Assembly: GCA_034437755.1 (NCBI GenBank)
Contig: DAOTTV010000078.1
Location: forward strand, 64,001 to 125,724
Direction of reading: 5' to 3'
DNA: 61,724 bases
Origin: Anaerolineae bacterium
Lineage (GTDB): Bacteria > Chloroflexota > Anaerolineae > Aggregatilineales > Phototrophicaceae
Below, piece after piece: positions 7,664 to 52,141 of this stretch. Below the pieces are notes generated by a model, which saw only the letters and a list, made by a program, of their open reading frames with translations, was not told the origin of the DNA and searched no databases. The number at the start of each line of letters is the position of its first letter. Position 1 is the stretch's first letter. A program made the position numbers and the translations under genes.

Positions 7664-8509
7664 ATGACCACGAGTTATACACGCGACGATTACCAATCCG
7701 CAGTCGATGTGATCCAGACACGTATCAGCACCGCCCCAACCATCGGCTTAGTGCTGGGGTCTGGCCTGGGCACACTCGCCGATACCCTTGCCGATCGGGT
7801 AGTAATCCCTTACAGCGATTTACCGCACTTCCCACAGTCAACCGTGCATGGGCACTCTGGCAATCTCGTCATCGGCACCTTAGAGGGACACACGGTGGTC
7901 GCACAGCAGGGGCGCGTTCACTTTTACGAAGGCTACACGATGCAACAGGTCACATTCCCGATTCGGGTGATGAGCTTGCTCGGCATCGAGACCATCATCC
8001 TCACGAATGCCGCTGGCGGTATCAATCCGGCGTATGCGGTTGGCGATTTGATGCTGTTGAACGATCACATCAACTTTTTGGGGATGGCGGGGCAACACCC
8101 GCTGATTGGTAAAAACGACGATACGCTGGGGCCGCGCTTCCTCGGCATGTCGCAGACCTATGATCGGCACTTGCGCGCGACCGCCCGCGCCATTGCCGAG
8201 GCACATGATATTCCCCTGCACGAGGGCGTATATACGTCGCTCGCCGGCCCGACCTTCGAGACACCGGCAGAAGTGCGGCTCTTACGCACCCTAGGCACGG
8301 ATGCGGTCGGCATGTCAACCGTACATGAAGTGATCGTCGCGCGCCATGCGGGTTTGCGCGTGCTGGCTTGCTCGGGCATCACCAACGTCGCCATCGACGA
8401 AATTGATAGCGATGCCGACGCTAATCACGAAGAAGTGTTAGAAGCCGGTCAGGTCATCGTCCCGCGCCTGACAACTGTCCTCAAAGGTGTTTTGCAGAGA
8501 ATGGACTAA
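7664..8509 (+). CDS. punA: Purine nucleoside phosphorylase (PNP-I family, inosine/guanosine type).
   Basis: RBS AAGGAG 7 nt upstream. 'GLVLGSGLG', 'TNAAGGINP' and 'SLAGPTFETPAE..GMSTVHEV' are canonical PunA/XapA motifs. Confidence 0.9.
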   Translation: MTTSYTRDDYQSAVDVIQTRISTAPTIGLVLGSGLGTLADTLADRVVIPYSDLPHFPQSTVHGHSGNLVIGTLEGHTVVAQQGRVHFYEGYTMQQVTFPIRVMSLLGIETIILTNAAGGINPAYAVGDLMLLNDHINFLGMAGQHPLIGKNDDTLGPRFLGMSQTYDRHLRATARAIAEAHDIPLHEGVYTSLAGPTFETPAEVRLLRTLGTDAVGMSTVHEVIVARHAGLRVLACSGITNVAIDEIDSDADANHEEVLEAGQVIVPRLTTVLKGVLQRMD

Positions 8510-8513
8510 CCTG

Positions 8514-9320
8514 ATGAATTTTATCTTCTTTGCGATTGAATGGGCGGCAATCCCGCTTCATATTCTGCTGGCAGTGATCGGTGTGTGGTACGGGTATCAG
8601 TTCATCAACGCCCGCTACGCTATCCGCTCAACGTACTTCGAACTAGAGCGCGATATTGCCCGCAACAAGCAAGCCAACGCCATCACCGCCATCATCATCT
8701 TGATCGAAATCGGCGTGTTGATCTTTGGCGTGCAAATGCGGGCTGTGCCCTATCTTGAGAGTGAGCGCGATTTCGATGAGCAAATTGCCCAGCAAGAAGC
8801 CCAACAAGTGCGCGATGGCGTTTTCGTGACAGACACGCCGCAGGCGGTCGCGCAGGGGATCGAGTTCGACGAAGGCACCCCCCTCGCAGAGAGTGAAATC
8901 GGGTTCATCCCCACACCGACACTCACCCCGACTCCGGTTGGGACGATTTTGCCCAACCCACCGCCGACACAGGGCTGTGTCGATGAAGCGGCGAATTTAC
9001 AAATTCCGGCGAACGGTATGCGCGTCTTCGCGCCGATTCCGGTGCGGGGTACTGCTTTCACCGATCAATTTTCGAGCGCGACGATTGAAATCAGCGGCCC
9101 CACGACCAACAATCAATTTTTCGTGGTCGATCGCTTGACCGCGCCCATCTTACAAACCAGCGATTTCAGCCAGTTTAATCCAGCAGGGTACGAGCCGGGA
9201 CGCTATGAATTTCGGCTGATGGTATTCGACCTGCGCGGAGATGTACTCGTCGCGTCGTGCCTCGTGAACATCTACATCAGCGCACCAGTGACCACGCCCA
9301 CACCCACACCCCGACGTTAG
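8514..9320 (+). CDS. Membrane protein with N-terminal TM helices and a Thr/Pro-rich extracytoplasmic region; hypothetical.
   Basis: Hydrophobic N-terminus with TPTLTPTP and TTPTPTPRR linkers. The start is ambiguous between GTG 8487 and ATG 8514. Confidence 0.5.
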   Translation: MNFIFFAIEWAAIPLHILLAVIGVWYGYQFINARYAIRSTYFELERDIARNKQANAITAIIILIEIGVLIFGVQMRAVPYLESERDFDEQIAQQEAQQVRDGVFVTDTPQAVAQGIEFDEGTPLAESEIGFIPTPTLTPTPVGTILPNPPPTQGCVDEAANLQIPANGMRVFAPIPVRGTAFTDQFSSATIEISGPTTNNQFFVVDRLTAPILQTSDFSQFNPAGYEPGRYEFRLMVFDLRGDVLVASCLVNIYISAPVTTPTPTPRR

Positions 9321-9416
9321 CGATGAAACTAGAAAAGCGCATGGGTACACGTTGTGCAAGGTGTGAAAGTTTTGACTGGACATGACTTTAGTCGAACAAT
9401 TCATTCAGGAAAACGT

Positions 9417-10100
9417 ATGAAACGCTACACCATTCGCGATATTCAAAAGATGAAAGACAACGGACAAGCGATTACTATACTCACCGGCTATGACGCAACC
9501 AGCGCCCGCCTCGCCGAAGCGGTCAATATCCCGCTGATTCTCGTGGGCGATACGCTAGGGATGGTCGCGCAAGGTCACGACTCGACTCTGCTGGTCACCG
9601 AGCAAGCCTTCGTCGTCGGCGATATGCCATTCATGAGTTATCACATCAGTCCCGCGCAAGCCCTCGAAAATGCGGGGCGCTTGATGCAAGAAGCCGGTGT
9701 CAGTTGTGTCAAGCTGGAAGGTGGCGCGGCGCGTGCGGAGACGATTGCACATATCGTCAACGCGGGCATCCCCGTGATGGCGCACATCGGTTTACCCCCC
9801 CAGAGCGTCCACCGCTTCGGCGGTTCTCGCGTGCAGGGCAGGCAACTCGCCTCCGCACGGCAACGCCTACGCGATGCCCGCGCCGTACAGGTCTTTCATG
9901 ATATTCTCGCGCTCTTTGACGATTTCGTACCGAAGCATACCAAACACTATGCCGAGATCGGCGAGATGATGCGCGTCGCGCTCCAACAGTATCGTGATGA
10001 CGTGCAAGCGCACCAATTCCCGACAGACGCGAATAGCTTTTCGATTCAGGATGAGATCATTGATCAGTTGAAAGCAGAGGTCACCGATGAAAGTCGTTGA
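9417..10100 (+). pseudogene. panB: 3-methyl-2-oxobutanoate hydroxymethyltransferase (PanB) homolog carrying an in-frame internal deletion of about 40 codons; probably inactive.
   Basis: The N-terminal two-thirds align with PanB ('ILTGYDATSARL..LVGDTLGMVAQGHDST..KLEGG..GLPPQSVHRFGGSRVQGR'). The segment that in E. coli and M. tuberculosis PanB holds the catalytic Glu strand ('LVLECVP') and the 'IGIGAG' loop is missing between 'RDARAVQ' and 'VFHDILALF'. The C-terminus resumes the PanB alignment at 'VPKHTKHY'. Confidence 0.6.
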
Positions 10101-10989
10101 GACGATTGCTGACCTACGCGCCGAACGACAACAGCTGACGGGTCAGGTGGGATTAGTGCCGACGATGGGCTATGTCCACGCCGGACATATGTCACTGATC
10201 GAAGCCGCACGCGAACAGTGTGATCGCGTGATTGCGACGATTTTCGTCAATCCGACGCAGTTCGCACCGGACGAAGACCTGAGTACTTATCCGCGTGATA
10301 TGCCGCGTGATCTCGCCCAATTCGAAGCCGCCGGTGTTGATCTAGTCTTCACGCCCACGCCAGAGGTCATGTACCCGCCTCGCTATCAGACCTATGTCAA
10401 CGTGGAAGACGTGACACAGGGACGCGAAGGCGGTAGCCGCCCGACACACTTTCGCGGGGTCGCAACCATCGTCAACAAGCTCTTCAACCTCACGCAGGCA
10501 GATGTCGCGTTCTTCGGGCAAAAGGACGCACAACAGGTGGTCGTCATCCGGCAGATGGTGCGTGACTTGAATATGCCGATTGCGATTGACGTATGCCCGA
10601 TCATACGTGAAGCGGACGGTCTCGCGCTCAGTTCGCGCAATGTCTATCTCAGCGCGGACGAACGACAAGCCGCACGTACCCTGCATCAAGCCCTACAGGC
10701 GACGGCTGATCTGTATGACAACGGCGAGCGCAATCCCGATCTTCTGCGCGAAACGGCTTATAATCTGCTGGCAGTCGAACCATTGGTGATAATCGACTAT
10801 GTGAGCTTAGCCGATGCGCGTACCCTGCGCGAAGTCACCCGTGCCACGGACGCGCCGGTGTTGCTCTCGCTAGCGGCACAGGTCGGCAAGTCGCGCTTGC
10901 TCGATAATTGTTTGCTCCCGCTGACGCTCAACACGCATGATGGCGCGACCGCGACTCTCGGTGCGAGCGTGCCCCATCGCGATACGTAG
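10087..10989 (+). CDS. panC: Pantoate--beta-alanine ligase.
   Basis: 'LVPTMGYVHAGHMSL' (HIGH-like), 'FGQKDAQQ' and 'LALSSRN' match PanC. It overlaps panB by 14 nt. Confidence 0.9.
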   Translation: MKVVETIADLRAERQQLTGQVGLVPTMGYVHAGHMSLIEAAREQCDRVIATIFVNPTQFAPDEDLSTYPRDMPRDLAQFEAAGVDLVFTPTPEVMYPPRYQTYVNVEDVTQGREGGSRPTHFRGVATIVNKLFNLTQADVAFFGQKDAQQVVVIRQMVRDLNMPIAIDVCPIIREADGLALSSRNVYLSADERQAARTLHQALQATADLYDNGERNPDLLRETAYNLLAVEPLVIIDYVSLADARTLREVTRATDAPVLLSLAAQVGKSRLLDNCLLPLTLNTHDGATATLGASVPHRDT

Positions 10990-11092
10990 CTAAAGCTATA
11001 AATAAGCGTTTACAAAGTTCTGACGCTTCGCTGATATTTTCTGGATATGATAAATATGTATCTAGCAAATTGAGTGACTCAGGAGTGAGACA

Positions 11093-11785
11093 ATGTTTTT
11101 CTTCGATCCGACCTATATTTTCCTCGTGATGATCCCGACGCTGATTTTGTCAGGGTTGGCGCAGATGTACTTGCGGGGTACGTACAGCACATGGTCACAA
11201 CGGGCGAATAGCAACGACCTGATGGGGCCTGACACTGCTGAACGCATCATCCGGCGCTCTGGCTTACAAAACGTGCAGCTAGAACTCGCAGACGGCGAAC
11301 TGAGCGACCATTACGACCCGACATCCCACACGGTGCGGATGTCGCCGGATGTCGCGCATACTAACAGTGTCGCCTCAATGGCGATCGTCGCGCATGAACT
11401 CGGTCATGCTCAGCAACATCAAGAAGGCTCGGCGATGATCGCGGCGCGCAGTTTCCTGTTGCCGGCGGTACAGATCAGCCCGACAGTTTCGTATTTCATG
11501 ATTATCGGTGGTCTGCTGATCGGTCTGTCAGGTCTGGCATGGTTGGGTGTTGCCGTATTCGCGATCAGCGTCGCCTTCATGCTCTTGACCCTGCCGATCG
11601 AATTCGACGCGAGCCGACGCGGGCTAAAACTGCTAGAAGAGACCGGTATGCTGGCGACTGAATCCGATCGCAATGGGGCACGTTCGGTACTGACAGCCGC
11701 GGCATTGACCTACGTTGCGGCGGCAATCGGTTCTGTTCTGCAATTGCTATACTGGGTGAGCATCGTCAGCAGTAGCCGCGAGTAA
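11093..11785 (+). CDS. Membrane-associated neutral zinc metallopeptidase (Zn_peptidase_2 family).
   Basis: HELGH zinc motif ('VAHELGHAQQ') with flanking TM segments. The length and topology fit the family. Confidence 0.75.
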   Translation: MFFFDPTYIFLVMIPTLILSGLAQMYLRGTYSTWSQRANSNDLMGPDTAERIIRRSGLQNVQLELADGELSDHYDPTSHTVRMSPDVAHTNSVASMAIVAHELGHAQQHQEGSAMIAARSFLLPAVQISPTVSYFMIIGGLLIGLSGLAWLGVAVFAISVAFMLLTLPIEFDASRRGLKLLEETGMLATESDRNGARSVLTAAALTYVAAAIGSVLQLLYWVSIVSSSRE

Positions 11786-25295: not shown

Positions 25296-26807
25296 TTATT
25301 CCACGTCGGCGACTACTACATTCGTTTCGTCGTCGTAGGTGAAGGTCACGGTTGCATCTTCTGCCAATGATAGCGTGTAGTTCGCGCCATCAGCTTCACC
25401 CTCAACGCCGTAGTTCTCATCCCAGCCACCATTCATAGCGATCTTGTATTCATAATCGCCTGCGGGGATTTCAAGTGTGATGCTATAAGTGCCATCATCT
25501 TGTAGTGCGAGGAAGGTGGCTTCGCAAGCCGGTTGCCAGTCACCATCACAGCCGACAAGGCTTTGGAAGCTACCGGGCAGACCGATGATACGTTCTTCGG
25601 ATTGCACCAGTTGGATAGCTTCGTTGATCTGGACAACAGCGTTGTTGTAGGTCTGGGTAGCGTCTTCGCCTTGGCTGACCAGCGTCTGAGCATCACCAGC
25701 CGCGCCCCAGACAGCACCCATTTCAGGAATAGCAGGCATGGCAACGGCGGTTGTACCGGCGTTCACGAAGCCTTCTACGTTGGGGTCTAAGCTGGTATCA
25801 ACGCCGAGGAATGCCGGCGGGCGACCTGCTGAGTCGAAGATAGCTTGTTGGAATTCGAGCGTGGCGACGTATTCTTGCAAGAAGATTTCAGCCAGCAGTT
25901 GGTTATCGCTGAAGTTGCTGATCATGATACCCTGCACACCGCTGAAGGGCGATGCCACCGCTTCTTCGACTGTTGCTGATGCGGGGAAGGGATCAATGCT
26001 GTAAGGCACGCCAGCTTCCGAGATACGTTGCGAGAACCACGGGCCAGTCACGAACATTGCCAGATCGCCTTCTTCGAAGAGCGCGAACACTTCGTCACCA
26101 CCGACGTTGGGCACCATGTATTCGTTCGTATACATGGTTTCCATCCATTCAGCCGCGGCTAAGCCACCTTCGCTGTTCAAGCCGACATCAGCGGGGTTAT
26201 AGCTACCATCTTCGTTGAAGCCGAAGATGTAACCGCCGAAAGCAGTGAAGATCGGGTGGGCGTGGTAAGGATCACCAGTCTGCACGAGGAACGCATATTG
26301 CGGGCTGTCTTCGCTAGCGGCGAAGTCCTCCGCCAGTTGGGTGATTTCTTCGATGCTTTGCGGGGCTTCGGGGACGAGATCAGTATTGCGGATGAGCGCG
26401 ATATTCTCGAAGTTGGTGGGTACACCGTACAACTTACTGTTGAAGGTGAGCGCGTCCAGCGTCGAGGGGACGAAATCACCAGCTTTGTCGCCCAGTTCGA
26501 TCGGCACCAGTGCCCCGTTCGATACCAGCAGACCGAGCCAGTCGTGTGCACCAACGAGAATATCCGGGCCTTCGCCCACTGGACCCGCCACGAGCAATTG
26601 ATCGCGGATATCGTTGAAGCCGATTTCAACCACGTTGAGTTCAATACCCAGTTCTGCCTCAACGTCATCGGCAACATCGAGGAAAACGCCCGAGCGTTCG
26701 CCATCAGCCCAAACGGTCAGCACGTTGCCCTGTGCGAACGCACTGCTGATCGTACCGAGCAAAAGCGATGCGACCAATAAAACTAATAGAAGTTTATTCC
26801 GTGACAT
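25296..26807 (-). CDS. Extracellular solute-binding protein (maltose/maltodextrin MalE-like) with an extra C-terminal domain of about 100 aa that may be carbohydrate-binding.
   Basis: Signal peptide 'LLLVLLVASLLLGTISSAFA'. 'VWADGE..GPDILVGAHDW' is MalE-like. The C-terminal 'GDWQP..AGDYEYKIAMNGGWDENYG' resembles a starch-binding CBM beta-sandwich. RBS GAGAGG. Confidence 0.75.
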   Translation of the reverse strand: MSRNKLLLVLLVASLLLGTISSAFAQGNVLTVWADGERSGVFLDVADDVEAELGIELNVVEIGFNDIRDQLLVAGPVGEGPDILVGAHDWLGLLVSNGALVPIELGDKAGDFVPSTLDALTFNSKLYGVPTNFENIALIRNTDLVPEAPQSIEEITQLAEDFAASEDSPQYAFLVQTGDPYHAHPIFTAFGGYIFGFNEDGSYNPADVGLNSEGGLAAAEWMETMYTNEYMVPNVGGDEVFALFEEGDLAMFVTGPWFSQRISEAGVPYSIDPFPASATVEEAVASPFSGVQGIMISNFSDNQLLAEIFLQEYVATLEFQQAIFDSAGRPPAFLGVDTSLDPNVEGFVNAGTTAVAMPAIPEMGAVWGAAGDAQTLVSQGEDATQTYNNAVVQINEAIQLVQSEERIIGLPGSFQSLVGCDGDWQPACEATFLALQDDGTYSITLEIPAGDYEYKIAMNGGWDENYGVEGEADGANYTLSLAEDATVTFTYDDETNVVVADVE

Positions 26808-44129: not shown

Positions 44130-44819
44130 ATGATCGCATCAAGTAACCCCACCCCTGAAAAACGCAAAAGCGGCGAGATTACTTTCCCCGTTGATGCTGA
44201 ACACGCCGGCATCCGCGTGACGGGGTGTACATCATTCATCGCTATTTTCATCGCCAGCTTCTTGCTGATGACGATGCTCATCCAGAATATCGTCGTGCTA
44301 GCGGGCATTATCGGCGTTGTGATTGCCGGTGGCTCAGCCACGTTGATCGAACGGACGTTACGTGGGCGCTGGGCAAGTGGGCGCGAGTTACACGCCGACA
44401 CCGACGCGATTCGTATCACTGATAAAGGCGAGACCGAGCGCAAGATCGACCCGAGTCTACAGGTTAATATGCTAGCGTGGCACTTCACGACTAAACGTGC
44501 TTCACGTGTGAAGAAAGGCTGGCACGTCATCGGGCTGGCGCTAGAGCAAGATGGCGAATTCGTGCCGGCGTATACCTTTGCCGCGCCGGATACTTTCGAT
44601 GCGTGGGAATACGCCGATCTCTTCACGAAGTTGGCGAAAGACAAGAAGCGCAACGACGATAACAAATCCGTGATGAACATGCGTCATGCCGGTGAGCAAC
44701 GTCGCCTGCGAGAAGCCGAGCAGGATCGCGGTATTTTCGGCGCTGAGATGACATTCGAGCAATTCAACCGTTACATCCAATTTTTGCAAACACACTACCC
44801 TGATTGGATGAGCAAGTGA
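44130..44819 (+). CDS. Membrane protein with a TM hairpin followed by a cytoplasmic domain of about 120 aa (possibly a bacterial PH-like bPH_2 domain); hypothetical.
   Basis: Two adjacent TM helices, 'FIAIFIASFLLMTMLIQNIVVLAGIIGVVIAGG', then a soluble domain. Confidence 0.45.
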   Translation: MIASSNPTPEKRKSGEITFPVDAEHAGIRVTGCTSFIAIFIASFLLMTMLIQNIVVLAGIIGVVIAGGSATLIERTLRGRWASGRELHADTDAIRITDKGETERKIDPSLQVNMLAWHFTTKRASRVKKGWHVIGLALEQDGEFVPAYTFAAPDTFDAWEYADLFTKLAKDKKRNDDNKSVMNMRHAGEQRRLREAEQDRGIFGAEMTFEQFNRYIQFLQTHYPDWMSK

Positions 44820-47996: not shown

Positions 47997-49364
47997 ATGA
48001 TACAACCGACCCAAAGCACGCTACAATGCTCCAATTGTGGCACGCCTAACGCTGTCACTGTACGGCGTGTGATCGATGCTCAGCAAGACCCGCAGGGCAA
48101 AGCGTTATTGCTCAACGGGCAGGTCAATAGCTTTGCCTGCCAGAACTGCGGCATGAACAACAGCATTTCATCGCCCCTGCTCTACCATGATGCCGAGAAA
48201 GAATTGCTAATCGCCTTCGTGCCGATGGACGTTGCCGCTAAGACCGGCACATCCCAGAACGAAGAACAGATCGTCGGTAGCCTGATGAACGAATTGACCG
48301 GACAACTGCCGAAAGAGCAATTCAAAGCCTATATGTTCAATCCCAAGCGCGCATTGACGCTACAGGGCTTGATTGAACAGGTGCTAGAGGCAGATGGCAT
48401 CACGCAGGAGATGATCGCCGAACAGAAACAACGGGTCGCGCTCGTGCAAAAATTCGTCGAGGCACAATCGGAAGAAGCGGTGGTCGAGCTGGCGAAAGAC
48501 CATGACGACCAACTGGACGAGGGCTTCTTCCAGACGCTTTCAATGATGGCACAACGCTTGATGCAACAGGGACAACAACAAGTCGCCGGTCATATGCTGG
48601 CGATTCAACAAGTGTTGGTCGAGCATACGAGTTACGGTGCCGAACTATTGAAGACGCAGGAACGCCAGCAAGAACTCATCAACGAGATTGCGGATCGCAT
48701 CGACACATTGGGCGATGAGGCCAGTCGCGATGATTTTATTGATCTCGCAGTTGAATTCGCCGATGATGAACAAAAGCTAGAAGCCCTCGCCGGTTTGATC
48801 CGTCCAGCGCTGACCGACGAATTCTTCAACCAGTTCAATCAGCGCATCAGCCAAGCGCCCGCCGATGAGCGCGAGACGCTGGAGAGCGCGCGCGATACTC
48901 TGCGTGACCTAACAGAGATGATCGACCAGCAAACGCGCTCGATGGTGCAACAGAAGGCACAATTCTTACGCATGTTGATGACTAGCCACGATGCTGAGGC
49001 GATGATGCGCCAGAACGTCGAGATAATCGACGATAACTTCATGACAGTGCTATCGATGAATATTCAGGAAGCGCAAAAACGCTCTGATGTGCAAACATCG
49101 GCTAAATTGCAAGAGATATACGAAGTCGCGGTGAGTTTATTGCGCGAGCAGATGACACCGGAGTTACGCTTCATCAATGAACTGCTCTCGTTTGAAGATG
49201 ATGCACAGGTCAAAGCGCACATTGACGCGAATATCGACCACTATGATAGCGACCTGCTACAGGTGTTCAGCGCGGTCGAGCAGATGTTAGCGCAACAGGG
49301 GCGCAATGACATCATCGATAAAATGGCGTTCATTCGTGTCGCGCTGGAACAAGCCCTCAACTGA
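47997..49364 (+). CDS. CpXC-domain (zinc-ribbon) protein with a long helical C-terminal region.
   Basis: 'LQCSNCGTPN..FACQNCGMNNSISSPLLYHD' matches the CpXC family signature, which ends in LYHD. The gene starts 24 nt after the kinase gene. Confidence 0.55.
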   Translation: MIQPTQSTLQCSNCGTPNAVTVRRVIDAQQDPQGKALLLNGQVNSFACQNCGMNNSISSPLLYHDAEKELLIAFVPMDVAAKTGTSQNEEQIVGSLMNELTGQLPKEQFKAYMFNPKRALTLQGLIEQVLEADGITQEMIAEQKQRVALVQKFVEAQSEEAVVELAKDHDDQLDEGFFQTLSMMAQRLMQQGQQQVAGHMLAIQQVLVEHTSYGAELLKTQERQQELINEIADRIDTLGDEASRDDFIDLAVEFADDEQKLEALAGLIRPALTDEFFNQFNQRISQAPADERETLESARDTLRDLTEMIDQQTRSMVQQKAQFLRMLMTSHDAEAMMRQNVEIIDDNFMTVLSMNIQEAQKRSDVQTSAKLQEIYEVAVSLLREQMTPELRFINELLSFEDDAQVKAHIDANIDHYDSDLLQVFSAVEQMLAQQGRNDIIDKMAFIRVALEQALN

Positions 49365-49486: not shown

Positions 49487-50944
49487 ATGCAAGAAAAGAC
49501 ATGGCAAAGAAACGGCTTCATCGCTGTGGCATTATTGATGATTGGCATGATGCTCTCATTGACGATTGTGCCCGCTACTCCTGTCGCCGCGCAGAATGAG
49601 GAACCGACCCCGACACCGCGTGATCCAGCTTGGCTCGGTTTTTCGACCGCACGCGAAGCCATCCAAGAAGAAGAAGGCGTTGATTTAAGCGTCGTGCGTA
49701 GTTGGGAATTTTGGCAGGATGATTGGAGCGTCGCTGAAGGCGCGCATCCGCAAAACGCCACCGGTATCGATAGCTGTGATACAGAAACCCTGATCCAGTT
49801 TGCACGACCAGTGTATTTCGGTTGGACGTATGTCATCACAGCGCTGAACGGTAACGTCTACGAAGCGCGGGTGAGCTTCGACCTGCAAGATGTCGTCTTA
49901 TGCGATATTATGACCGAAATGTCAACGCCGGCGGTTGCCACAGATGGCAGCGGTAACACGGCTGATACCGAAGATGCTGTTGTCCAAGCTGGCGCAAGCG
50001 GTGAGTTCGAACTTGGTGGTCACGCGACGGGTTTCTTCCCGGATGCGGTGCAGGCAATGCAACGCTCCAACATGACATGGGTCAAGATTCAAGTCCCGAT
50101 GTATGCTGGCGTGCAATATGGCTACGATCGCATCAACGAAGCAAAAGCCAACGGCTTCAAGATTCTGATCGGTCTGGTCGGCAATGAGGATGAGCTAGGG
50201 GCAGACTTTGAAGGGTATGTCGATGGGCTGGCGACGTATGCCGGCGCAATGGCAGAAGCCGGCGCGGATGCTATCGAAGTGTGGAACGAGCCGAATCTCG
50301 GGCGTGAATGGCCGGAAGACCAGATCAACGGCGCACGCTATACTGAGATGCTCTCAGTCGTCTACAACCGCATCAAAGAGCGTAACCCCAATACGATGGT
50401 GATTAGCGCGGCAATGGCCCCGACCGGCGCATTCGGCGAAGCAGGATGTGGCAACCTCGGCTTCGAGAGTGGGTGTAATGATGATGTCTTCATGCAACAG
50501 ATGGCGCAAGCCGGCGCGGCGAATTATGCGGATTGCATCGGCGTACACTACAACGAAGGCATCGTCAGCCCGGGCACGTTCAGCGGTGATCCGCGTGGCG
50601 AATTCCCGACCTACTACTTCGGGTCGATGACCAGTCGCGTGGCGCAATACTTCCCGAATCGCCCCATTTGTTACACCGAGTTGGGCTACCTGTCTCCTGA
50701 AGGCATGGGCGCACCCCTCGCCGGTAACTTCGCGTGGGCGGCGGATACGAGCTTGGCTGAACATGCGGCATGGTTGGGCGAAGTTGTCGATCGCGCCCAA
50801 CAACGCGGCGACATCCGTATGCTGATCGTGTGGAATGTTGATTTCGATCGCTGGGATTCAGATCCGATGGGCGGTTATGCTATCCTGCGCCCCGATGGCA
50901 GTTGTCCGGCATGTGATACGCTAGCGAACGCCAGCAGGAACTAG
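49487..50944 (+). CDS. Secreted glycoside hydrolase with a GH5-like TIM barrel and an N-terminal domain of about 120 aa.
   Basis: Signal peptide. 'EVWNEPN' is the GH5 acid/base NEP motif. 'CYTELGY' is the nucleophile Glu. RBS AGAGG. Confidence 0.7.
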   Translation: MQEKTWQRNGFIAVALLMIGMMLSLTIVPATPVAAQNEEPTPTPRDPAWLGFSTAREAIQEEEGVDLSVVRSWEFWQDDWSVAEGAHPQNATGIDSCDTETLIQFARPVYFGWTYVITALNGNVYEARVSFDLQDVVLCDIMTEMSTPAVATDGSGNTADTEDAVVQAGASGEFELGGHATGFFPDAVQAMQRSNMTWVKIQVPMYAGVQYGYDRINEAKANGFKILIGLVGNEDELGADFEGYVDGLATYAGAMAEAGADAIEVWNEPNLGREWPEDQINGARYTEMLSVVYNRIKERNPNTMVISAAMAPTGAFGEAGCGNLGFESGCNDDVFMQQMAQAGAANYADCIGVHYNEGIVSPGTFSGDPRGEFPTYYFGSMTSRVAQYFPNRPICYTELGYLSPEGMGAPLAGNFAWAADTSLAEHAAWLGEVVDRAQQRGDIRMLIVWNVDFDRWDSDPMGGYAILRPDGSCPACDTLANASRN

Positions 50945-51006: not shown

Positions 51007-51921
51007 TCAGAGATATGACCCGTCCCGCGTCGTGAGTGTCTCGGTCGATAAGCCGTATTTCTGTAGGCGTTGATGATAGGCACGCAGGACGAAATAGCCA
51101 TTATCATCGAAGTGACCTTTGACTTCTTGCGCGTCAATTGTCGCATCTGCTAGCGCCTGTTGCATCTGCGGCGCGAATTTGCGTTGCTTGCGGCGATATT
51201 CCCACGTCTCCAGCCAATCCCCTAGCAGGCCGCCAAGCACCCACTCTAGCACGGCTGTGAGCCAGTGCCGCTGATGCGCCGGTGTCGGTTGGCAATGCGC
51301 ATTGGGCAAGTACTGCCCCAGCCAGCGATTCTCCTGCCAGAATTGTTGATATAAATCGCCGCCAGTGATCGGCACCATCTGCGCGACTTCATGCGCGATG
51401 AAGATATCGCGCCGACGCTGACCCATGTTGTTGGCGGCAACGACGTAATTCGGGCATAGCTCGCGACCACGCCAGCGCACGACGCGCACGAGCAAAATCG
51501 CAAATGCGCGGGCTAGCCACACACGCCGCGGTTGCGTGATGAGCATGTAGTCGAAGTCGTCATCGTGTGAGGCGGGATTACGCACGGATAGCGCGCCCGT
51601 CATCGCGACCATACGGACGAAGGGTAAAGCCGCCAGCCAACGCCCGTAGCGTACCGCTTCTTGCCAGAGGTCTTGCGTCACGGCTTCGCGCCGGATGCGC
51701 TCTTGCACGTATTCTGGATGCTCGGCAAGGCAGATATAGCACTGCTCACGGTAGACACTGCGCTGTAACCACGAGGACGTATGTAAGGTCGTCTGGATTT
51801 CGTCAAAGGTCACCGGATGCGAGGTGATGAGATAGCGATGGAGTTCGTCGAATGTCAGGGCAAAACGGAACACATCGGCATAGATTAGGGTACGTAAAAT
51901 GGCGGTTTCAATCGGCTCCAT
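51007..51921 (-). CDS. Hypothetical protein; possibly a pol-beta-like nucleotidyltransferase fold.
   Basis: ATG 51921 is preceded by GGAG. 'GALSVRNPASHDDDFDYML' resembles the hG[GS]-x9-13-DhD nucleotidyltransferase motif, but the match is weak. Confidence 0.45.
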   Translation of the reverse strand: MEPIETAILRTLIYADVFRFALTFDELHRYLITSHPVTFDEIQTTLHTSSWLQRSVYREQCYICLAEHPEYVQERIRREAVTQDLWQEAVRYGRWLAALPFVRMVAMTGALSVRNPASHDDDFDYMLITQPRRVWLARAFAILLVRVVRWRGRELCPNYVVAANNMGQRRRDIFIAHEVAQMVPITGGDLYQQFWQENRWLGQYLPNAHCQPTPAHQRHWLTAVLEWVLGGLLGDWLETWEYRRKQRKFAPQMQQALADATIDAQEVKGHFDDNGYFVLRAYHQRLQKYGLSTETLTTRDGSYL

Positions 51922-52141
51922 GAGCTTGACTCCAACGTTTGTCGATCGTTTCGACATTCATTTTATCTGCGCTTACGGATTTGCGCGAACAGTTGACGCT
52001 CGTAGTGGCTCATGTTACACTATGTGTAAGCTAAAGAGGTGACGAAAAGTGGGCAAACCCCACTTTTTGTTTTATATACACACAATCAGCACCGTGTGTA
52101 GCATGAACTCCGACGAGGTCTTTTCTTGGAGAATAAATTGT

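Follow-up and report, generated by a model that had tools for sequence, protein, structure and literature searches.

Gene content and context of the panB–panC locus

The window, i.e., the whole analysed stretch of 61,724 nucleotides (61.7 kb), was evaluated for its gene content around a shortened copy of panB. The rest of the window resembled ordinary chromosome, about 90% coding, and contained nusA-infB-truB-ribF, argS, ABC transporters and two tRNAs; these two were the only hits when the window was scanned for Rfam families and tRNAs, and neither was located near panB. The features of the locus are given below.

9321–9416, + strand: intergenic region upstream of panB, 96 nt; the PanG-like gene of relatives is missing here
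9417–10100, + strand: panB ORF, a probable remnant, 227 aa, frame open; relatives 279–292 aa
10087–10989, + strand: panC (pantoate–beta-alanine ligase), 300 aa, intact, PF02569

The panB ORF matched Pfam PF02548 (ketopantoate hydroxymethyltransferase) with an E value of 2.2e-64, and the match was split into two stretches, the first of which covered profile positions 2–171 of 259. The solved PanB structures 3EZ4, 1OY0, 3VAV, 1M3U and 1O66 aligned to residues 1–160 of the window protein (E about 1e-35). These alignments restarted approximately 40 chain residues further on, after 'DARAVQ', and contained an extra gap of approximately 15 residues after 'GHDSTLLVT'. Moreover, the scores for the window protein were under the curated cut-offs of both NCBIfam models, with 223 bits for NF001452 (cut-off 272) and 178 bits for TIGR00222 (cut-off 207.55). 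A complete (βα)8 barrel was not represented in the protein, in which about 40 profile positions were skipped and α2 and β6-α6-β7 were missing. An alternative upstream GTG start at 9354 is possible; the relatives share the start 'MKRYTIRD' with the ORF beginning at 9417. A weak promoter-like site (TTGACT-17-AACAAT) was found at 9372–9400 in a promoter and terminator scan of 9200–11200. It fell in a stretch largely conserved in the closest relative (contig L001) and was not decisive. According to the database search, the identical 227-aa protein is on record in NCBI/ENA/Logan; the shortened ORF is labelled 3-methyl-2-oxobutanoate hydroxymethyltransferase by JGI, and NCBI also carries it as a protein.

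PanC was a full-length equivalog of TIGR00018, which it matched with 325 bits (cut-off 212.75). The first 14 nt of panC, from its ATG at 10087, overlapped the 3' end of panB, whose stop codon is TGA at 10098–10100, and a Shine-Dalgarno-like GAGG (10077–10080) was located 6 nt upstream of this ATG. An overlap of about 11–14 nt between the two genes was also observed in several relatives (e.g., L001, L003, L006 and L008).

The order PNP, hypothetical gene, panB, panC and Zn-peptidase was kept in ten related Anaerolineae/Phototrophicaceae-like MAGs. Hence, the window locus is the ancestral, orthologous panB locus. The best match among the GTDB representatives scanned was a Phototrophicaceae MAG with 76% identity. 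The conserved hypothetical protein just upstream of panB (8487–9320, + strand, 277 aa) had a transmembrane-like N-terminus and a Pro/Thr-rich tail. It had no Pfam or NCBIfam match and was syntenic in all ten related MAGs, with 43–57% identity.

In ten related Anaerolineae MAGs (L003:2108–3004, L004–L012), a gene encoding approximately 298 aa was located directly upstream of panB, and the same arrangement was found in more distant Dehalococcoidia. The product combined a Rossmann-like domain with DUF2520 (PF10727 and PF10728), and the gene overlapped the panB start in L003, the sole relative with ORFs listed. The ketopantoate reductase PanG belongs to the DUF2520 proteins, and the gene was regarded as encoding a putative PanG-type ketopantoate reductase on the basis of this resemblance. 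The window had only the 96-nt spacer at this position; thus, the pantoate branch would lack its reductase step at the locus as well. In L001, the 198 nt available before panB showed no trace of either the PanG-like gene or the upstream gene, and the loss of the PanG-like gene may predate the panB deletions described below. About 88 nt upstream of panB, all similarity between L001 and the window ended; this part of the L001 contig (L001:1–110) contained an inverted repeat (GGAGAAGGGGA...TCCCTCTCC), and the upstream neighbourhoods therefore differ between the two lineages.

Elsewhere in the window, a sugar ABC-transporter solute-binding protein (25296–26807, − strand), unrelated to panB, carried a C-terminal pullulanase X25 domain (PF22058) and adjoined MalF-like permeases, which suggested α-glucan uptake. 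The sole match of a 455-aa protein (47997–49364, + strand) was an N-terminal CpXC domain. Several neighbouring ORFs (44130–44819, 49487–50944 and 51007–51957) had no Pfam match, and this part of the window forms a small island of uncharacterised genes.

Two in-frame deletions in panB

The deletions were defined against P0002, the closest full-length relative (284 aa, 92% identical over the shared columns), which is encoded on contig L001. The window PanB was aligned with P0002 and six other proteins, the DNA was aligned with L001, and the junctions were taken from the boundaries of the BLAST matches. The DNA identity between the window and L001 was 91% for panB and 93% for panC. Two clean gaps were found, one of 45 nt (15 codons) and the other of 126 nt (42 codons), both of which were multiples of three; in total, 57 codons were missing.

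9594–9595, + strand: junction of deletion 1, 45 nt, P0002 residues about 59/60–73/74 ('PVTMAHMIYHASIVT'), following 'GHDSTL'
9885–9891 (GTACAGG), + strand: junction of deletion 2, 126 nt, P0002 residues about 174–215

The first-pass annotation of this DNA had described a single in-frame deletion of about 40 codons in panB. By protein and DNA alignment this deletion was exactly 42 codons long, and the description therefore stood for the larger lesion; the number of deletions had to be revised, because the 15-codon deletion at 9594–9595 had been overlooked. The statement that the reading frame is kept and that panC is intact downstream was borne out by the open panB ORF and the full-length panC.

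The matches flanking deletion 1 overlapped by 2 nt (GT), and the codon beside it was altered at an invariant residue, read as P59L or R74L depending on the alignment. The deletion-2 block in L001 was bounded by GTACAGG and GTGCAGG, in which six of seven bases match, 4 nt exactly. No repeat of more than 7 nt flanked either deletion. The secondary structure of P0002 was assigned from its AlphaFold2 model, with α2 at 62–75, α5 at 159–175, β6 at 179–183, α6 at 187–196, β7 at 201–204 and β8 at 212–215. Mapped on this model, deletion 1 took out essentially the whole of α2, and deletion 2 took out the end of α5, β6 (VVLEL), α6, β7 (TIGIGAG) and the CDGQ loop ahead of β8.

The homologue search returned about 8000 matches, and the best 120 of these, except for the window allele, were 274–292 aa in length. 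The 57 conserved residues lost by the window protein were present in 119 of 119 other homologues, namely P0002 and 118 further proteins. The number of gap columns in either deleted region was three or fewer in each of these 118; hence, the deletions are not normal variation of the family. Furthermore, the deleted columns ranked among the most conserved of the family and included 'AGAF..VLELVP', 'IPTIGIGAG' and 'CDGQ'. No other short PanB of the same architecture was found among the best 120 of the about 8000 matches.

In the 1M3U alignment, E181 of the E. coli enzyme, located in 'LVLECVP', aligned with E183 of P0002, which lies inside deletion 2; counting along the same alignment confirmed K112, E114 and H136. 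E181 is reportedly the proposed general or catalytic base of the E. coli enzyme. D46, D84, K112, E114, H136 and E181 are strictly conserved PanB pocket residues and are likely essential (2026 paper, PMC13488298). Five of the six conserved pocket residues were kept by the window PanB (D45, D69, K99, E101 and H123), and the equivalent of E181 was deleted. The alignments with full-length relatives and solved PanB structures agreed with the first-pass annotation that the catalytic segment is missing, with the equivalent of the catalytic Glu and the TIGIGAG segment both inside deletion 2.

A collapse of the region during assembly had also been suggested as the cause, in which case the true panB would be full-length and the reads collapsed or mis-joined. 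Every source of the allele was a metagenome assembly, and related samples might underlie parts of the NCBI, JGI and Logan assemblies. The short allele was traced via the one-residue variant P0121 and via PanC. Over 18.5 kb, the JGI contig (3300012009, Ga0153773_1000070, 95 kb) differed from the window by 8 mismatches and 1 gap (99.95% identity), and its version of the 227-aa protein had a single substitution, R88C. The Logan contig (run ERR2407578) began inside panB, had both junctions and differed at 2 of 3510 positions (99.94% identity). Both junctions were therefore present in three assemblies from different pipelines that are separated by a few SNPs, and none of the three contained a frameshift or premature stop over the 227 codons. 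The homologies at the junctions, 2 nt and 7 nt, were far under any assembler k-mer. Moreover, direct repeats of at least 12 nt spaced 45 or 126 nt apart were absent from the intact relative, and thus no assembler k-mer could have collapsed these regions. An artefact would also leave the excess of substitutions at conserved sites, described in the next section, without an explanation. The suggestion of a collapsed region was therefore abandoned as highly improbable, and the deletions were regarded as biological.

Substitutions, constraint and predicted fold of the shortened PanB

Amino-acid changes were polarised with outgroups to compare the window lineage with its sister, and conservation was judged on the 118 homologues. 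For PanB, 12 changes were assigned to the window lineage, whereas none was assigned to the sister (binomial p = 0.0005). The corresponding values for PanC were 5 and 2, a difference that was not significant. The residues of the window at M21I, V51A, the junction position (P59L or R74L), T142P, F152S and L165R occurred in 0 of the 118 homologues, and that at N147H occurred in 3 of 118. The consensus frequency at these six or seven sites was 88–99%. The positions of the changes outside the junction are listed below.

9477–9479, + strand: M to I, upstream substitution of the window lineage at a family-conserved site
9567–9569, + strand: V to A, upstream substitution of the window lineage at a family-conserved site
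9795–9866, + strand: substitution cluster in the β5-α5 loop and helix, with T to P (9795–9797), N to H (9810–9812), F to S (9825–9827) and L to R (9864–9866)

The sole PanB difference between the window and JGI alleles, R88C, was non-synonymous. The pairwise dN/dS against L001 was 0.14 for panB (0.08 in its C-terminal third) and 0.12–0.18 for panC. Pairwise dN/dS was rejected as a signal of relaxation, since the panB value was not above that of panC and the asymmetry appeared only after outgroup polarisation. With the synonymous changes split evenly between the two branches, dN/dS would be roughly 0.2–0.3 for the window branch vs. at most about 0.1 for the sister. These patterns suggest a recent or partial loss of constraint on the window panB; because the relaxation is visible only after polarising, it must be recent or partial. 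Judged from the sequences, panC is under purifying selection.

The structures of the intact and shortened proteins were predicted with AlphaFold2. The intact P0002 had a pLDDT of 85.9 and a pTM of 0.79, compared with 60.2 and 0.45 for the window protein; the underlying alignments were near-identical for the two proteins, and this confidence is not a measurement of stability. The confidence of the window model fell below 50 at residues 44–64 and 124–177, around both junctions. These values are consistent with a compromised fold of the window PanB, as a model-based indication and not as proof.

Status of panB, pantoate supply and comparison with known systems

The window panB was interpreted as a recently inactivated relic with its frame still open, beside a maintained panC, and a probability of about 0.8 was assigned to this reading. 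A genuine loss of function had been among the causes raised at first pass, and it gained support from the alignments, the lineage-specific changes at conserved sites and the drop in structure-prediction confidence. The population, an uncultured Chloroflexota (Anaerolineae, near Phototrophicaceae), would have inherited panB as the single ancestral locus, within a (panG-like)-panB-panC operon. Two short-homology deletions of 45 and 126 nt would then have occurred, with the frame kept by chance, and α2, α6, two of the eight barrel strands (β6 and β7) and the E181-equivalent Glu would have been lost with them. Without these elements, the (βα)8 active site is predicted not to assemble, and the product should have no ketopantoate hydroxymethyltransferase activity. 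From the time of the deletions, or thereabouts, panB would have drifted under relaxed constraint while panC stayed under purifying selection. The open frame may reflect no more than the short time elapsed, or frame-breaking alleles may be disfavoured by the overlap of the panB stop and the panC start; this overlap could be the reason why only frame-preserving panB lesions are seen.

The evidence for decay was not uniform. The loss of 57 residues and the 12 vs. 0 asymmetry confined to the window lineage both point to a relic, though the pairwise dN/dS of panB is low. Frameshifts and premature stops were absent, and the ORF is open. The chance of both deletions falling in frame is about 1/9. Furthermore, the protein still has five of the six pocket residues, and the promoter-proximal region is kept. 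These features weigh against the relic reading. It is improbable, if conceivable, that the remnant is held open by selection, either as a coupling leader for panC in a pantoate-salvaging cell or in a six-stranded non-catalytic role; if true, a frame held by selection would account for the two in-frame deletions and the low pairwise dN/dS. The chance is slimmer still that the shortened PanB remains functional or has taken a new role, e.g., as a barrel completed by oligomerisation in the decamer, as a regulatory or scaffold protein, or as a translated leader for panC. The same in-frame pair of deletions, the ORF that is open in three assemblies, the pairwise dN/dS (0.14 for the whole gene, 0.08 for its C-terminal third), and the 14-nt stop/start overlap common to relatives would fit such a role. 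However, the barrel has lost two of its eight strands along with a strictly conserved Glu of the pocket, and radical T to P, F to S and L to R changes at near-invariant sites are found in this lineage only. The low AlphaFold confidence and the lack of a similar short PanB among the best 120 matches of about 8000 also argue against it, and panC has its own GAGG site, by which coupling is not obviously required.

The supply of pantoate was considered separately from the state of the local gene. An intact second panB, or another source of ketopantoate elsewhere in the genome, could make the local copy dispensable while pantothenate is still made. This redundancy was considered a doubtful option, although one to be kept in mind: the purifying selection on panC implies a pantoate supply of some kind, and at least one MAG, the more distant Acidimicrobiia MAG MFD05442.bin.1.317 (L039 and L044), contributed two panB loci. 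On the other hand, the decaying copy occupies the conserved ancestral operon position, most related MAGs contributed a single panB locus, and the documented salvage by PanC-only genomes can explain a retained panC without any second copy. Within the 61.7-kb window, tblastn with the intact relative recovered the known locus only. One further tblastn match, with E = 0.78 and inside a xanthine-dehydrogenase-like ORF, was discarded as a chance match and not a second panB. Pfam scanning of 35 window ORFs gave no member of the PanS, PanF or PanT transporter families, and none appeared in the Pfam labels of L002. In the metagenome scan, no intermediate panB allele was found, with nothing closer than 54% identity among the matches listed. 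If redundancy were true, the local panB would still be dead and the physiological conclusion would change.

With the window panB taken as a recently inactivated relic, the cell would probably obtain pantoate or pantothenate from the community, or from a gene elsewhere in its genome; reliance on pantoate or pantothenate supplied by the community is plausible. The annotation has a practical consequence. Metabolic reconstructions based on gene presence and absence would count this population among the pantothenate prototrophs, even though its PanB is very probably dead as judged from the sequence; an annotated 'PanB' is thus no proof of prototrophy. The locus offers a clean and datable case of vitamin-pathway erosion, in which a free-living member of a community is losing panB but keeps panC, and it is in line with cross-feeding of pantoate or B5. 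The case is one of ordinary reductive evolution in a vitamin pathway and reveals no new mechanism or system.

In comparison with the PanB family (1M3U, 1OY0 and 3EZ4), the window protein shares the equivalents of E. coli D45, D84, K112, E114 and H136, as well as panC as its operon partner and the genomic position seen in related Anaerolineae. It differs in the 57 missing residues, i.e., α2 and the β6-α6-β7 block that includes E181 and the IGIGAG strand, and moreover in scores below both NCBIfam cut-offs, in radical lineage-specific substitutions and in its low predicted-fold confidence. The retention of PanC in genomes that lack pantoate synthesis is an established salvage pattern ('Apt' variants, Rodionov et al., 2019, PMC6593275). 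The window resembles such pantoate-salvage and B5-auxotroph genotypes, with which the pantoate transporter PanS of Salmonella was grouped, in its intact and constrained panC, its apparently non-functional pantoate branch and the missing PanG-like reductase gene at the locus, whereas its panB is not absent but in mid-decay, as an open and annotated ORF. Bacterial 'cryptic' pseudogenes with in-frame deletions formed by short homology are the third likeness. As in these, very short direct repeats (GT; GTACAGG/GTGCAGG) are found at the window panB, and there is no frameshift, so that gene callers and annotation still report a normal protein; the window panB differs mildly from them in having two independent deletions, both in frame.
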